This document shows positions 11,179 to 14,392 of a stretch of 64,000 nucleotides of DNA, piece by piece. The position numbers and the translations under genes are program-made. Source of the DNA: Nitrospirota bacterium (GTDB taxonomy: Bacteria; Nitrospirota; UBA9217). Under the pieces are notes generated by a model, which did not search any database, was not told where the DNA came from, and saw only the letters and a program-made list of their open reading frames with translations. Numbering within the stretch: the first letter of the stretch is position 1; every line of letters begins with the position of its first letter. Location of the stretch: contig OY760142.1 of NCBI GenBank assembly GCA_963663225.1, positions 704,001 through 768,000 of the forward strand. Reading direction: 5' to 3'.

Positions 11179-12705
11179 TCATGAACGCTTTTGCAATATA
11201 TTTCCGAATAGCTCTGCTTCTTTGATTACTTCAAAATATTTATCTGTTGGATCCGAATCCCCAGTTACAAGCGCGCCTACCTGTACATGCTTTTTCCCAT
11301 CCTTGACCGTGATGGTGGCGGAGGCAATATTGAAATCCATATCGCCATTATTAGAAAAGTATCCAACAACACCGGCAAACAGACCGCGAGTTGCAGGTTC
11401 AAGTTCACCAGGAATTTCCATGCAATGCGCTTCTGGATCATCCGTTCTCATCGCTCCCGAAAATGCCGCAGAGATGAGGTCAACACTATTTCTGCCTTGT
11501 TTTAGAACGCCTTGCATGGTCGAAGCCGTGCTGCATTTTTTGTCGGGACCGGTCCTTTCTCTTTTGTTTACAATGATACTGCCGGGGTTGAGCATGGCGC
11601 CCAAGCCGTTGTTTTCAGCATACCTGTGCACAATGGTATGGGCAGGCTGTTCTATGATTTTTCCCGCAGCACCACCTTGCGGATGTGTCATTGTCGGCAA
11701 TTTCACATCAACAATTCCATCATGACATCGCACAAGGCGGTCATGCGAAAAGCTTACGGTCTGCAGATCTTTAAAATCAAAATGCGCGACGGAAGACGAT
11801 GCATCGCTCTTGTGCAGTATCGTGTGCAGTTGAAGAACATCCTGAGAATCTGTCGCAGCCGAAAACCGCAGAGACACAGTCGGTCGGCAAAGGTTTCCTT
11901 TCAGAATGGAGTCTTTGCATCTTCTCACCCTGTTTTCAAATTCAGACCTGGTAAGATCGGGAATGAGCGGACCAGCATTTCTCGTATCGTCGCTGGCCGG
12001 GAAAACAGCCCGCATTTCTGTTTTCGACGCTTTCTCAAGTTTTTGGGCAACATCTGCAATCCGAGAAACTGCTTCATCATAGTACCGCTCACCTTGTTCA
12101 GGAGCGGGGCGTCGGAACCCCAGCTCCTGCTCGCGGGCTCCTGGGTTTACGATTATCCATGCCTTATCCCGGCTATGGTCAAAAGCAAGAACCATATCAA
12201 CGAAGGCAAAGTAGGTCTCCGGAATTTTGATGTCCGTTTTTGCACTACGCGATACAGCGCTATGCTGTCGTGCAAAATCATACGAAAAAAGACCTATGGC
12301 GCCGCCGGTGAAAGGTGGAAGGCCGGCAATGCGTTCGGTTTGATAATTTGACAGAAGTTCCTTTAGCTTTTCCAGCGGCTTACGCCTCATTGTCGCCCGT
12401 TTTCCATATTTACCTGCAGGCGTTTCAGGCAAGCTGATTTCTACTTCATCACCATATGATTTGAAGATAAGATATGGATTTTCCGACACGAAAGAGTATC
12501 TTTTTGCCTCCTTGCAATCCGGGATGCTTTCGAAAAATATGGAATATCCTTCCGAGCTCAAGGATTCAAGCGCCGAAATAGGCGTAAGCCCCGGAAAGCC
12601 GATCTCTGCGTAAATGGGCAGCATTATTCCCGTTTTGATGGAATTGAGAAAATCTATTTTTTGCGGCCTGAGTGTATGCATGGCTGGAAGGAATTTTAGT
12701 TGCAA
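11179..12705 (-). CDS. Anthranilate/aminodeoxychorismate synthase component I-like protein (TrpE/PabB fold) with degenerate catalytic motifs
   Basis: N-terminal FFES...RYSF, PPFTGGAIGLFSYD, AFDH; C-terminal ELEPATRGLFAGVVGYF, GDMDFNI, VQVGALVTGDSDP; start uncertain (12705, 12681 or later). Confidence 0.8.
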   Translation of the reverse strand: MQLKFLPAMHTLRPQKIDFLNSIKTGIMLPIYAEIGFPGLTPISALESLSSEGYSIFFESIPDCKEAKRYSFVSENPYLIFKSYGDEVEISLPETPAGKYGKRATMRRKPLEKLKELLSNYQTERIAGLPPFTGGAIGLFSYDFARQHSAVSRSAKTDIKIPETYFAFVDMVLAFDHSRDKAWIIVNPGAREQELGFRRPAPEQGERYYDEAVSRIADVAQKLEKASKTEMRAVFPASDDTRNAGPLIPDLTRSEFENRVRRCKDSILKGNLCRPTVSLRFSAATDSQDVLQLHTILHKSDASSSVAHFDFKDLQTVSFSHDRLVRCHDGIVDVKLPTMTHPQGGAAGKIIEQPAHTIVHRYAENNGLGAMLNPGSIIVNKRERTGPDKKCSTASTMQGVLKQGRNSVDLISAAFSGAMRTDDPEAHCMEIPGELEPATRGLFAGVVGYFSNNGDMDFNIASATITVKDGKKHVQVGALVTGDSDPTDKYFEVIKEAELFGNILQKRS

Positions 12706-12736
12706 ACAAGAAGAGGGTCAAGATAATTCTATAAAA

Positions 12737-12765
12737 TTCACCTATCCTGAAAAATATGCTATACT
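12737..12765 (+). promoter_or_regulatory. Sigma70 promoter with extended -10, pointing into the structured intergenic element
   Basis: TTCACC, 17 nt spacer, TATACT with TG at 12757-12758. Confidence 0.6.
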
Positions 12766-12822
12766 ATAAGTAAGCTATTTCTTGCTGGATCGTAAGCTCT
12801 TTGAGAAGTTCAAGGGTTGTTG

Positions 12823-13138
12823 GGCGTTGCCGAACCATCACCGATAGGTGTACAGATGGTAACCCGTTATAAAGTGGAATAGGTACCGTTCTGGCGAATT
12901 ACCGAACCGGCAAGAGAGCTGCTAGTTGGGCAGTAACTCTCCCGGTTGTTTTACAGGTTTCCACCAGGACGGAAGAACTGAATGCCACTAAGCTTCGATT
13001 TCGTATAAGCGGGGAAGTTCTATATACACGAAGCTTCACAGGGTCTGCAGTGCGGAGCCGCAGAAGCAGGTTGTTCTTCCTGACAGCTGCCGAAGCTCAG
13101 CGGAATACCAATACAGGTTCGATGGCAACGCCTTTTTT
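12823..13138 (+). ncRNA. Candidate large structured non-coding RNA, family unassigned
   Basis: Closing stem GGCGTTGCC-GAACC (12823-12836) / GGTTC-gat-GGCAACGCC (13116-13132) followed by T6; at least five nested internal helices; upstream promoter; no long ORF. Confidence 0.6.
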
Positions 13139-13203
13139 ATTGTGACATTAGAAGTGCACTAGAGCCGTTTCCCTACCTTAATAATTACCCCTCATCTTTT
13201 CCT

Positions 13204-13232
13204 CGACAAAATAACAGAAATATTTTACACTG
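13204..13232 (+). promoter_or_regulatory. Putative sigma70 promoter for the thioesterase-trmN6 pair
   Basis: TCGACA, 17 nt spacer, TACACT. Confidence 0.5.
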
Positions 13233-13274
13233 GCTTAGTTTTTTCAAAACCTATCTTCTCCGAGACTAAACGAT

Positions 13275-13667
13275 ATGAACCATATCATGGAAATAAAAAT
13301 CTATTATGAAGACACGGATTGCGGAAATGTCGTATACTACGCAAATTATCTTCGCTACATGGAGCGGGCAAGAACCGAATACATGGCTGCCCGAGGATCA
13401 TCGATCAAAACGCTTATGGAGCAAGGATCGCTGTTCATGATCCTTCACGCAGAGGTTGATTATCGCTCACCCGCACATCTTGGTGACATCCTGGTTGTGG
13501 AAACCTGGGTTACGGAAACCACCGGTGCTACGATCACCTTCCAGCATACCATGAAAGAGAAAACAACAAACAGGCTTATCACGGAATGCAAGGCAACCGC
13601 CGTCTGTGTGGATGCAACCGGCAAACCAAAAAAAATCCCCCGCCAAGCACTGGAGAACCTGCGGTGA
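13275..13667 (+). CDS. YbgC/FadM family acyl-CoA thioesterase
   Basis: IYYEDTDCGNVVYYANYLRYMERARTE hot-dog motif. Confidence 0.92.
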   Translation: MNHIMEIKIYYEDTDCGNVVYYANYLRYMERARTEYMAARGSSIKTLMEQGSLFMILHAEVDYRSPAHLGDILVVETWVTETTGATITFQHTMKEKTTNRLITECKATAVCVDATGKPKKIPRQALENLR

Positions 13668-14392
13668 AAGAAGCGATTGCCGACACCATCTCGCTACGAG
13701 GAGCCGGCATTGTATCAATTCTGCAGCCAAAAAAGGGGCATCGTTTCACGCTTGACAGCCTTCTGCTCGCTGATTTCTGTCGTGTTAAACCTCGCTACAA
13801 CGTGCTTGAGCCTGGTGCTGGAACTGGCATCATCTCCATCCTCCTCGCAAGAAAATTCGCACACATAAAAATTACCGCCGTCGAAATACAATCAACAATG
13901 GCGGAGCTTTGCCGTTTGAATATTACCCAAAACGGCCTTACTGACCGTATAACCCTCGTCGAACAACCCATCACGAATTTGCGGAATTTTTTTCATCCAT
14001 CATCCTTCGATCTTATTGTCGCCAATCCACCCTATTTTCGAACAGGCGCCGGAAAGCAAAGCCCTTCACCTGAACGCTTTTTTTCACGCCATGACCGATT
14101 CGCCTCTCTGGATGTATGGCTTGATCTTCGGTTTTTTTTAAAAAATAACGGCCGGTTTGTTCTCGTTTTTTCAGCGGATCGTTTCGCAGATGCTATCACC
14201 TCGCTTCGGGTTCGCGGTCTAGAACCCAAGTGCATACGCTTCGTTCACTCCCGGCAGGAAAAATCGGCGTACCTTGTTCTGATCGAAGCGGTAAAGGCTG
14301 CCGGAACAGGTCTTGCAGTGCTTCCCCCGCTGATTATTCATGCATGCGGTCAAAACTATTCAGAGGAAATGAAAGAGCTCTATGGTTTATAA
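13664..14392 (+). CDS. tRNA1(Val) A37 N6-methyltransferase (TrmN6/YfiC-like)
   Basis: QPKKGHRFTLDSLLLA, LEPGAGTG, ANPPYF; GTG start overlaps the upstream stop (GTGA). Confidence 0.88.
   Translation: MKEAIADTISLRGAGIVSILQPKKGHRFTLDSLLLADFCRVKPRYNVLEPGAGTGIISILLARKFAHIKITAVEIQSTMAELCRLNITQNGLTDRITLVEQPITNLRNFFHPSSFDLIVANPPYFRTGAGKQSPSPERFFSRHDRFASLDVWLDLRFFLKNNGRFVLVFSADRFADAITSLRVRGLEPKCIRFVHSRQEKSAYLVLIEAVKAAGTGLAVLPPLIIHACGQNYSEEMKELYGL

Follow-up and report, generated by a model that had tools for sequence, protein, structure and literature searches.

What is encoded between a divergent trpE gene and a downstream thioesterase gene on the chromosome of a Nitrospirota bacterium, in a gap devoid of any long open reading frame (ORF)? 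The locus lies in a stretch of 64,000 nucleotides (contig OY760142.1), which is referred to as the window and to which the positions below refer. An earlier note on this sequence had proposed an undescribed, stand-alone, large structured non-coding RNA (ncRNA), a proposal that would be refuted by a match to a known Rfam family, by many dispersed copies, or by lack of a transcript, conservation and covariation; none of these was found. From the evidence compiled below, window positions 12822-13138 (+ strand) very probably constitute a stand-alone gene for a stable, multi-branched ncRNA of ~315 nt, representing an uncatalogued family. No account of such an RNA from Nitrospirota was found in the literature outside subscription journals and supplements.

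Few bacterial ncRNAs of more than 300 nt with an intricate conserved fold are known. Where their function has been solved, they proved to act as ribozymes, as cores of ribonucleoproteins or as particles that assemble themselves. The RNA described here is universal in one family of Nitrospirota, whose uncultured members come from anoxic habitats, both engineered and natural. It is apparently abundant and, thus, offers a concrete target for structure determination and partner pull-downs.

Distribution and genomic neighbourhood

Using blastn, the RNA was detected in 22 of 24 genomes of its own family and in none of 16 genomes from other families. A covariance model (R1), covering only the 3′ half of the RNA, matched all 27 other genomes of the family and had no hit among 123 genomes representing 21 further families of the phylum. 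When 185,579 species genomes were scanned for an exact motif, 43 loci were returned, all of them titled Nitrospirota, Nitrospirae, Nitrospiria or Nitrospiraceae. The homologue collection suggested earlier has been assembled and reveals strong conservation within one Nitrospirota family; in the sampled genomes, every member of this family carries the RNA and no other family does.

The RNA is single-copy in this 3.26-Mb genome, and the dispersed copies expected of a miniature transposable element (MITE) are missing. Across the family, one to three copies per genome occur, including tandem copies with a promoter each in G006 (three) and G007 (two). In addition, five genomes contain a leaderless paralogue with a separate terminator, termed type B (type A being the form found in the window). 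Type B was recognized through five stronger second matches to R1, which proved to represent a true paralogue type. Weak second matches (27 bits) in G000 and G004 were not counted; the one in G000 lies in apparent coding sequence.

The gene located 5′ of the RNA is the divergent trpE; a TrpE homologue is the nearest upstream ORF in 46 of 51 copies, an adjacency that may be a matter of inherited synteny only. On the 3′ side, genes for a YbgC-type thioesterase and a TrmN/HemK-like methyltransferase follow on the same strand. Among the 47 copies having a downstream ORF of at least 80 aa, the largest such ORF encodes a methyltransferase homologue in 20, and the downstream gene differs in over half of the loci. 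Neither is any Pfam family common to the neighbours of the five type B loci, nor does gene order suggest a protein partner. Phage, plasmid and viral collections were without a match.

A protein-coding reading of the locus was tried and rejected, as the longest ORFs on either strand comprise 41-103 codons and the frame is not kept among homologues; the lengths of 51 RNA homologues modulo 3 are distributed 22/20/9 over the three residues, bearing out the earlier impression of a gap lacking a long ORF, in that none is conserved.

Conserved fold

The extent of the RNA and the elements of its fold are as follows:

12822..13138, + strand: conserved RNA, reaching from the P1 base through the U-tract, defined by conservation, covariation and RNA-library contigs over 12823-13129
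12823..12836, + strand: 5′ strands of P1 (12823-31) and P1b (12832-36), pairing with 13124-32 and 13116-20, respectively
12839..12850, + strand: P2 hairpin, CACC-GATA-GGTG
12857..12868, + strand: 5′ strands of P3b (TGGTA, 12857-61; partner TACCA, 13106-10) and P3 (CCGTT, 12864-68; partner AGCGG, 13099-103)
12874..12988, + strand: arm A, closed by P4 (12874-77/12985-88) and a GGT/ACT helix (12882-84/12977-79)
about 12886-12904, + strand: short variable hairpin in the interior of arm A
12905-12947, + strand: P7/P7b/P7c stack of arm A with a conserved 7-nt loop
12956-12970, + strand: P6 hairpin of arm A, often with a GNRA-type loop in relatives
12971-12978, + strand: conserved junction GGAAGA(A/G)C of arm A
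12991..13097, + strand: arm B, a long irregular rod of P9, P10, a variable middle, P8, a conserved 3x3 internal loop and an apical stem
12991-97/13091-97, 13010-15/13077-82, 13033-37/13063-67 and 13041-48/13052-59, + strand: P9, P10, P8 and the apical stem of arm B, respectively
13099..13132, + strand: 3′ strands of P3, P3b, P1b and P1, interrupted by a bulge of 3 nt (13121-23)

Folding z-scores, which the earlier note had recommended, were obtained for the stretch 12772-13140. The predicted folds are more stable than those of shuffled sequences on both strands, amounting to -128.4 kcal/mol on the + strand (z -4.07) and to -117.7 kcal/mol on the - strand (z -3.89), with 0 of 100 shuffles reaching the respective value.

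The fold was assessed in three MAFFT alignments (A1-A3) of up to 51 sequences, which were not fitted to the structure. In A1, which was scored over 81 pairs, 87.7% of cells are paired in comparison to 31-45% in slid controls, the corresponding values being 88.8% versus 35-46% in A2 and 86.0% versus 26-44% in A3; as the structure was partly hand-derived from the same sequences, these comparisons with controls are flattering. In A1, 39 pairs have changed on both sides versus 22.5 in shuffles, a value reached by 0 of 500 shuffles. Covariation throughout the fold appears strong, with many double changes.

The helices differ in the firmness of their support. P1 is 98.2% and P1b 96.0% paired (25 sequences), and P2 is 96-97% paired. 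The GGCGTTG of P1 is invariant in 25 of 25 sequences and recurs in all 12 additional loci found with the model; in the 26 pattern-found sequences, invariance of P1 and the U-run is given by construction. P3 is 93.6% paired, while P3b, which varies by clade (TGGTA/TACCA, TGATA/TATCA, TTTTAAC/GTTAAAA) and whose strands are misregistered by MAFFT, reaches only 71.9%. Within arm A, pairing is 96.1% for P4, 92.2% for P7c, 93.5% for the GGT/ACT helix (3/3 pairs changed on both sides) and 89.4% for P7 together with P7b (9/9 pairs changed on both sides); P6 is weak, with 51-61% in the MAFFT alignments. The rod of arm B, into which an extra hairpin is inserted in some clades, is reproduced by individual folds, and its stems are 77.9% (P9, with 8/9 pairs changed on both sides), 94.0% (P10), 95.3% (P8) and 98.0% (apical stem) paired among 51 sequences.

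Two of the six helix sets perceived in the single sequence survive comparison with homologues. These are GGCGTTGCC-GAACC (12823-12836) with GGTTC-gat-GGCAACGCC (13116-13132) followed by T6, which corresponds to P1/P1b (96-98% paired), and AACCGG/CCGGTT around GAGAG/CTCTC and CTGC/GCAG, which corresponds to P7/P7b/P7c. The remaining four had to give way to better-supported helices. Of the supposed GGTACCG/CGGaaTACC pairing, CGG belongs to P3 and TACCA to P3b, and GGT at 12882-84 pairs with 12977-79. The first arm of GGAAGAAC/GTTCTTCC is the conserved junction, and TTCC goes to P10. Instead of AAGCTTCG/CGAAGCTT, AGCTTCG (12991-97) pairs with CGAAGCT (13091-97) in P9, and GCTTC (13033-37) with GAAGC (13063-67) in P8. 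ACCATC/GATGGT is found in this genome alone and is incompatible with P1b and P2.

Tertiary contacts did not emerge from a covariation scan of all column pairs, which returned only clade-correlated columns, i.e., noise. A candidate contact between the P7c loop (GTTGAGC in most sequences) and GCTCAAC at the 3′ strands of P9/P3 was not adopted, as it competes with P3/P9 and only some variants compensate.

The + strand contains many G-U pairs that would be A-C if read on the other strand; e.g., three such pairs are GU in 21/51, UG in 23/51 and GU in 17/51 sequences. Together with the promoter, the boxA-like element and the U-tail, all of which read on the + strand, these settle the orientation, for which the earlier note had only expressed a preference.

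Promoter, leader and 3′ end

The elements flanking the conserved core are the following:

12737..12765, + strand: promoter TTCACC-17-TATACT with an extended -10 box (TG one base before the -10; 9/12 hexamer matches)
12772..12821, + strand: precursor leader outside the conserved core, its sequence unconserved save for the boxA-like element
12796..12807, + strand: boxA-like element GCTCTTTGAGAA, presumed NusB/NusE loading site, as in rRNA leaders
13133..13138, + strand: U6 tract directly after P1; P1 + U6 is shaped as an intrinsic terminator with the whole RNA as its "loop"

The extended -10 promoter, recognized earlier, has an equivalent (TGnTAnRnT) within 110 nt upstream of 49 of 51 homologues, and transcription is expected to start near 12772. 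Conservation, as judged from blastn matches in relatives, begins at 12822/3 and not at 12772. The transcript of ~310-365 nt (about 12772-13138) envisaged in the earlier note is, thus, retained as a putative precursor, but not as a structured RNA over its entire length: the conserved RNA measures ~315 nt (12822-13138), and the first ~50 nt are a leader with a boxA-like element that had escaped notice. In type B, the -10 box is situated 8-9 nt upstream of GGCG and, hence, transcription would start at the first bases of the core. Overall, leader length ranges from about 8 nt (type B) to >60 nt.

The upstream sequences of the homologues are unalignable except for one motif, TCTTT[GA], which precedes GGCG by 23-48 nt in 42 of 51 homologues and is absent in 9. 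In the window, this motif is represented by GCTCTTTGAGAA, which is nearly identical to the genome's own rrn boxA, GGTCTTTGAAAA in the 16S leader and GTTCTTTGACAA in the spacer; the 16S leader carries GGTCTTTGAAAAC and the 16S-23S spacer GTTCTTTGACAAC, and the 16S-leader motif is identical in three further genomes of the family. The element lies downstream of the -10 box and upstream of the core, i.e., in transcribed-leader position. By likeness and position, it is a candidate boxA. Upstream of the genome's RNase P RNA, tmRNA, 6S RNA and SRP RNA, no boxA-like motif is present. In three g17 genomes (G054, G086, G140), the leader carries TCTTTCTAAA instead, with the rRNA leaders of G140 and G086 keeping the standard motif, and one of the G007 copies (G007a) has a short leader without the motif.

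According to a published account, boxA suffices for the rrn antitermination complex and is also found upstream of suhB and CRISPR operons (PMC13753749). The element described here shares with these boxA sites that it is a short, U-rich motif tens of nucleotides past the promoter of a long untranslated transcript, and differs from them in preceding a single 315-nt stable RNA gene; moreover, one genus has a variant of it. Neither boxB, boxC nor a leader-trailer helix was identified at the RNA gene. The same source states that the rrn complex interferes with intrinsic termination, which counts against the boxA reading (PMC13753749). The RNase P RNA of this genome also ends in P1 and a U-run without a boxA; a long-range terminator can, thus, do without this element. 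The discriminator of the RNA promoter is A/T-rich, unlike that of an rrn P1-like promoter, and co-regulation with rRNA is, therefore, not supported.

At the 3′ end, a stem of 9 bp (P1, 7 G-C) followed by U6 encloses a "loop" of about 290 nt, and a simple scan finds no local hairpin terminator. A T run follows P1 in the 25 blastn-found homologues, and two model-found members (G130, G019) are without a clean run. A promoter-like site at 13203-13231 agrees with the earlier prediction that the next gene has its own promoter.

Expression

The core is represented in environmental RNA libraries: in four studies, contigs with 95-99% identity to the window fall on 12823-13129. One contig in X14, 300 nt in all, covers 12828-13127 with a word depth of 283.8 in a run of 25 million letters; another, in X16, from a more distant relative, has 27 further letters upstream, which contain CTTTGACA and, thus, place the boxA-like motif ahead of the core. 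This evidence consists of contigs, which convey neither strand, exact ends nor a reliable level, and RNA libraries can hold DNA; RNA abundance is, with this proviso, apparently high. The four runs contain no contig over 12650-12822 or 13134-13300, which says nothing about the RNA ends.

Alternative explanations

One alternative is that the RNA is a highly diverged representative of an established class, be it RNase P RNA, tmRNA, SRP RNA, a 6S/Ms1-type RNA, a Y RNA, a nuclease guide RNA or the remnant of a group I/II intron. This is suggested by its size and closing 5′/3′ stem, which recall several stable RNAs, and by the apical words of arm B, which, by eye only, loosely recall SRP RNA domain IV of this genome. 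The Rfam comparison that had been called for yielded no match to the window RNA at E<=10 and, among 20 homologous loci of both types, six stray matches, none of which is recurrent; the one that falls on the RNA (L010, E 9.7) is antisense to it. For RNase P RNA and SRP RNA, no model matches at E<=10, and the true copies are located at C1:1140699-1141069 (280.5 bits) and C1:1207837-1208049 (68.9/77.9 bits), respectively. ARAGORN predicts 0 genes in 12000-14000, the true tmRNA residing at C1:1634374-1634725 (199.5 bits). The exclusion of these three RNAs in the earlier note is, thus, confirmed. 6S RNA is dismissed by the lack of a match, by a fold that is multi-branched rather than a rod with a central bubble, and by the true copy at C1:1011616-1011797 (101.1 bits). 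A Y RNA/YrlA identity is contradicted by the lack of a Y RNA model match and of the TROVE/Ro gene (PF05731, 0 matches in the 98.99%-complete genome), and a split or extra rRNA piece by the 23S match, which spans model positions 1-2925 (2940 bits), and by complete 16S and 5S, all of these rRNAs residing elsewhere in the genome. As for an intron or guide RNA, neither a reverse transcriptase nor an IscB/TnpB-type nuclease is among the flanking ORFs scanned (5 with Pfam, 9 with NCBIfam, 17 with Pfam), where three of the 9 NCBIfam-scanned ORFs were without any family match and the scans covered a minority of the downstream ORFs; furthermore, the nearest upstream ORF is the TrpE homologue in 46 of the 51 copies. 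A diverged known class is, hence, highly improbable.

Nearly as improbable is a cis-acting leader, i.e., a riboswitch or attenuator controlling the thioesterase and methyltransferase genes via the P1/U-tract terminator. The same-strand arrangement of these genes and the recurrence of the methyltransferase homologue downstream would accord with it. However, the stem of the terminator closes the conserved fold as a whole instead of forming as an alternative to it, the downstream genes vary, the type B neighbours are unrelated, tandem copies have promoters of their own, the next gene is preceded by a promoter-like site, and the 300-nt RNA-library contig lies wholly within the RNA. A mobile or repeat element (MITE, phage or plasmid remnant) would explain the terminal inverted repeat P1/P1b, readable as MITE ends, yet there is a single copy in the genome, a constant chromosomal neighbourhood in 46/51 copies and no match in the mobile-element collections; a chance fold is at odds with compensatory changes across the whole structure. 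The probability left for either of these is negligible.

Resemblance to other large bacterial RNAs

The raiA motif RNA is likewise stand-alone and highly structured, with strongly conserved unpaired nucleotides, clear covariation, apparently high abundance and no assigned function, as described in the literature (PMC12968392). In contrast to raiA, which occurs in >2700 species, the Nitrospirota RNA is restricted to one family, has a boxA-like leader and is without a match to any Rfam family. With OLE, ROOL and GOLLD, the RNA has in common a length of >300 nt, a complex conserved fold without assigned biochemistry and a fixed core with clade-specific helix insertions; it is smaller than these, chromosomal, syntenic, not phage-linked and, again, without Rfam match. 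raiA, OLE, ROOL and GOLLD are all among the Rfam models; raiA is ~205 nt long, and the Nitrospirota RNA exceeds it by ~110 nt. The genome's own RNase P RNA is similar in that its ends form a closing helix P1 with a U-run directly after, while the core of the Nitrospirota RNA differs, does not match the RNase P models and has an invariant P1 sequence.

Possible biogenesis and role

The proposed route would begin with the extended -10 promoter (12737-12765), starting a ~365-nt precursor near 12772. The boxA-like element in the ~50-nt leader would load NusB/NusE, and RNA polymerase would take on the rRNA-type antitermination/chaperone form, shielding the untranslated transcript from Rho and possibly aiding closure of the long-range P1 helix. 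The leader would then be trimmed to the P1 base, the end of the transcript would be set by P1 + U6, and the RNA would act in trans as a folded particle.

For the role of this particle, we tentatively lean towards a ribonucleoprotein scaffold, recognized through P1, with its invariant sequence, and through the conserved junctions rich in purines, without granting it even chances. A self-assembling RNA-only particle or ribozyme, requiring no dedicated protein, is somewhat unlikely. Its merits are the size, the multi-branch layout and the strongly conserved unpaired junction nucleotides of the RNA, the GNRA-type P6 loops in several relatives, the clade-specific helix insertions, the lack of a conserved neighbouring protein gene and the precedent of GOLLD, ROOL and OLE, which are reported to form homo-oligomers (PMC12286853). 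These are countered by the lack of a self-complementary conserved loop, by the tertiary covariation scan, which gave nothing beyond noise, and by the fact that neither a cleavage site nor a substrate is suggested; moreover, invariant sequence in a paired stem such as P1 looks more like a protein recognition site. Roles other than these or that of a sponge or regulator are rather unlikely, and a protein sponge or regulator distinctly so.

Beyond the scaffold reading, it is possible, though doubtful, that the RNA is the first lineage-specific stable RNA of housekeeping grade to have its synthesis coupled, via its own boxA leader, to the rRNA antitermination/chaperone machinery, and that it represents a new ribonucleoprotein or catalytic class tied to the translation/transcription apparatus of the family, with a boxA-led type A and a leaderless type B. 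If true, a boxA-type element devoted to a small stable RNA gene would extend Nus-factor antitermination/chaperoning beyond rRNA, suhB and CRISPR arrays, and the leader would provide a compact natural system for asking whether the antitermination complex helps long-range helices close. The alignments at hand, comprising 51 sequences plus the second subtype, are enough to seed an RNA family model.

Structure of the RNA Gene

The 570-nt gap between a TrpE-like gene and a YbgC-type thioesterase gene very probably contains a genuine gene whose product is a stable structured RNA, belonging to a family not yet catalogued, with a core at 12822-13138 (~315 nt). Its fold was derived from a MAFFT alignment of 25 homologues (A1), RNAalifold, single-sequence folds of the 3' half and column-pair counts. 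Helices P1 and P1b close the molecule and, beyond the small P2 hairpin, P3b and P3 lead to a junction of two arms. Arm A additionally contains a variable hairpin and the P6 hairpin, while arm B is a long rod of P9, P10, a variable middle, P8, a conserved 3x3 internal loop and an apical stem.

Features of the locus (window positions)
11179-12705, -: TrpE-like gene (model matches)
12721-12693, -: promoter of the trpE-like gene, near-consensus (TTGACC, 17 nt, TAAAAT)
12737-12765, +: RNA promoter (TTCACC, 17 nt, TATACT; TG ahead of the -10)
12796-12807, +: leader motif, GCTCTTTGAGAA
12823-31 with 13124-32, +: P1
12832-36 with 13116-20, +: P1b
12839-50, +: P2
12857-61 with 13106-10, +: P3b
12864-68 with 13099-103, +: P3
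12874-77 with 12985-88, +: P4, closing arm A
12882-84 with 12977-79, +: three-pair helix, closing arm A with P4
12905-47, +: P7/P7b/P7c stack of arm A, with a conserved seven-base loop
12971-78, +: conserved purine-rich junction of arm A
12991-97 with 13091-97, +: P9, arm B
13010-15 with 13077-82, +: P10, arm B
13033-37 with 13063-67, +: P8, arm B
13275-13667, +: YbgC-type thioesterase gene (model matches)

Folding against dinucleotide shuffles, a check proposed in the earlier note, finds 12772-13140 stabler than shuffled sequence on both strands, with -128.4 kcal/mol (z -4.07) on the plus strand and -117.7 kcal/mol (z -3.89) on the minus strand; none of 100 shuffles was as stable in either case. 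Collecting homologues and examining covariation, likewise proposed there, gave 86.0-88.8% paired cells versus 26-46% when the 3' partner was slid as a control; the alignments were not fitted to the structure, which nevertheless derives partly from the same sequences and is to that extent favoured over the slid versions.

Pairing in three MAFFT alignments
A1, full length: 25 sequences, 81 pairs, 87.7% of cells paired versus 31-45% slid
A2, 3' half: 51 sequences, 26 pairs, 88.8% of cells paired versus 35-46% slid
A3, 5' half: 51 sequences, 31 pairs, 86.0% of cells paired versus 26-44% slid

In A1, 39 pairs are changed on both sides, compared with 22.5 in shuffles, and none of 500 shuffles reaches this number. 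Weak as aligned are P6 (51-61% paired) and P3b (72%), the latter owing to a register shift between clades. Of the six sets of complementary segments proposed from the window alone, two are retained, namely the stem that closes the molecule, together with the U-tail, and the stack built on AACCGG/CCGGTT; the other four proved specific to the window genome and are replaced by covarying alternatives.

The strand, previously left unsettled with a leaning towards plus, is now settled as plus. Several pairs are often G-U or U-G, three of them, for instance, in 21, 23 and 17 of the 51 sequences of A3, and would be A-C mismatches on the minus strand; the promoter, leader motif and U-tail are all read on the plus strand as well.

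The P7c loop (12925-12931), GTTGAGC in most homologues and GTTGGGC in the window, is complementary to GCTCAAC (window: GCTCAGC, 13093-13099), a segment running across the 3' ends of both P9 and P3. The complementarity may mark a switch or an alternative pairing; only some variants show compensation.

Distribution and Subtypes

Blastn detects the element in 22 of the 24 other genomes searched within its uncultured Nitrospirota family, but in none of 16 that represent ten further families of the phylum; the matches start at 12822-12823 and stop near 13141. R1, a covariance model of the 3' half (146 positions, 26 pairs), matches all 27 other family genomes, including two missed by blastn, and none of 123 genomes of 21 other families. 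An exact-motif scan of 185,579 prokaryote species, one genome each, gave 43 loci with 45 copies (26 new, 19 duplicates of homologue sequences already collected), and all 43 record titles name Nitrospirota, Nitrospirae, Nitrospiria or Nitrospiraceae. Across the family, genomes carry one to three copies. Tandem genes, each with its own promoter, occur as three in one genome (L053, G006) and as two 3 kb apart in another (G007:C67:84598-87837). A weak R1 match of 27 bits in the window genome (G000:C1:3003021-3003179), which reads as coding and has no P1 motif, is taken to be a false positive; R1 E-values near 1e-4 are therefore unreliable.

Weaker R1 matches, confirmed by the P1, P3 and P8 motifs, revealed a more distant second subtype of ~295 nt with unrelated neighbours, termed type B, in five genomes (L116, L117, L118, L119 and L120; G151, G015, G103, G107 and G023).

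Promoter, Leader and Ends

The extended -10 promoter described in the earlier note is present, with a comparable site upstream of the RNA in 49/51 homologues, 23 to 94 nt from -10 to core. The stretch in between is unalignable save for one motif, mostly GATCTTTGAAA in other homologues; in 42/51 copies, TCTTT[GA] precedes the core by 23-48 nt. In the window genome, the 16S leader carries GGTCTTTGAAAAC, letter-identical in three further family genomes, and the 16S-23S spacer carries GTTCTTTGACAAC. In rRNA operons, boxA occupies these two locations. Six stable-RNA genes of the genome were compared, and only the rRNA operon and the RNA have the motif within 150 nt upstream. Given this likeness to the genome's own rRNA-operon motifs, the position and the absence before other stable-RNA genes, we read the leader motif as a putative boxA-type NusB/NusE site.

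According to PMC13753749, boxA suffices for formation of the rrn antitermination complex, which blocks Rho, and is also found upstream of suhB and CRISPR operons. Several points count against the boxA reading, however. That source also has the rrn complex interfering with intrinsic termination (PMC13753749); nine of 51 copies do not have the motif as defined, and the leader of tandem copy G007a, 28 nt long, shows no boxA-like motif. Three genomes of genus g17 have TCTTTCTAAA in the RNA leader; the rRNA leaders of the two examined (G140 and G086) retain the standard motif. Furthermore, the discriminator of the RNA promoter is A/T-rich, unlike rrn promoters, and the genome's RNase P RNA ends in P1 and a U-run without any boxA.

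The core starts with GGCG in every homologue (25/25 in A1; 12/12 further model-found loci). Type B has neither leader nor boxA, and its -10 box lies just 8-9 nt upstream of GGCG, so transcription must start with the core's opening bases; this lends support to a mature 5' end at 12822/3 in type A, the subtype with a leader. At the 3' end of the window RNA, P1 is directly followed by U6, in agreement with the U-tail noted earlier. Two diverged type A members have no clean U-run, and type B has instead a separate local hairpin terminator ~30 nt downstream. In the RNase P RNA gene (G000:C1:1140699-1141069), the closing helix is likewise followed directly by eight T, and a long-range helix with a U-run may be a common ending of stable RNA genes in the lineage.

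Presence in RNA Libraries

A word index lists seven RNA runs containing part of the stretch. The four examined, from four studies, all have contigs 95-99% identical to the window on 12823-13129, which attest presence rather than ends, strand or level; DNA, moreover, can occur in RNA libraries. Run X14 (25 million letters) has one contig, 300 nt in all, covering 12828-13127 at a word depth of 283.8. A 95-nt contig of run X16, from a more distant relative, begins 27 letters before the core, in a stretch that contains CTTTGACA.

Identity and Possible Function

The earlier proposal of an undescribed large structured ncRNA is borne out: a cmscan search of the full set of 4227 Rfam families at E<=10 has no match on the element (one stray match, speF, 11.8 bits, lies outside at 12574-12654 on the minus strand), and ARAGORN found nothing at the locus. 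The housekeeping identities are rejected, with clear genes elsewhere in the genome for RNase P RNA (280.5 bits), tmRNA (199.5 bits), 6S RNA (101.1 bits) and SRP RNA (68.9 and 77.9 bits). A split rRNA piece is ruled out because 16S, 23S (model positions 1-2925 covered) and 5S rRNA are present elsewhere, and a Y RNA would have no partner, since the genome has no TROVE/Ro gene. Full-text literature searches returned no description of such an RNA. The nearest known counterparts, alike only in kind, are raiA, OLE, ROOL and GOLLD among the large orphan bacterial RNAs and, as regards the leader, boxA sites.

With moderate confidence, we infer that transcription would start at the extended -10 promoter, that the putative boxA would yield a boxA-modified polymerase, that the leader would be trimmed back to P1, giving the mature 5' end of type A, and that P1 with the U-tract would end the transcript.

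As to function, a ribonucleoprotein scaffold is tentatively favoured because P1, although base-paired, keeps an invariant sequence in both subtypes, the purine-rich junctions are conserved, the RNA occurs throughout the family in one to three copies and its abundance seems high. The next candidates, an RNA-only assembly and a ribozyme, are less likely even when taken jointly, and a sponge or regulator is less likely again, but all of these are live alternatives. It is unlikely that the element is a diverged known RNA or a cis-regulatory leader. The same applies to a mobile element, against which stand its single copy in the 3.26-Mb, single-contig genome and the lack of anything similar in phage, plasmid or viral collections.

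Neighbouring Genes

Gene order suggests no protein partner for the RNA: a divergently oriented TrpE homologue is the largest upstream ORF in 46/51 RNA copies; 47 copies have a downstream ORF of at least 80 aa, the largest of which is a methyltransferase homologue in 20; and the genes flanking the five type B loci have no Pfam family in common. The RNA-trpE link may be inherited synteny. The two promoters lie back to back, and GGTCAAG is conserved upstream of the RNA promoter in most homologues because it is the -35 box of the trpE-like gene.

This TrpE-like gene has a decayed look in the host's genus. Its score on the trpE model is 191.8 bits versus 455-483 bits for two complete relatives' copies, and its protein is 44% identical to one relative's TrpE, preserved at both ends but divergent in the central catalytic part. 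Identity to the reference is 38-50% for the four copies of genus g1, mostly 61-74% for the other matching copies and 90-93% for two close relatives of the reference; the window gene may be a paralogue in decay or a pseudo-enzyme. Downstream, the thioesterase ORF shares 82 nt, in a different frame, with the longest methyltransferase ORF (13586-14392, +), and the true methyltransferase start probably lies further downstream than that of the longest ORF.
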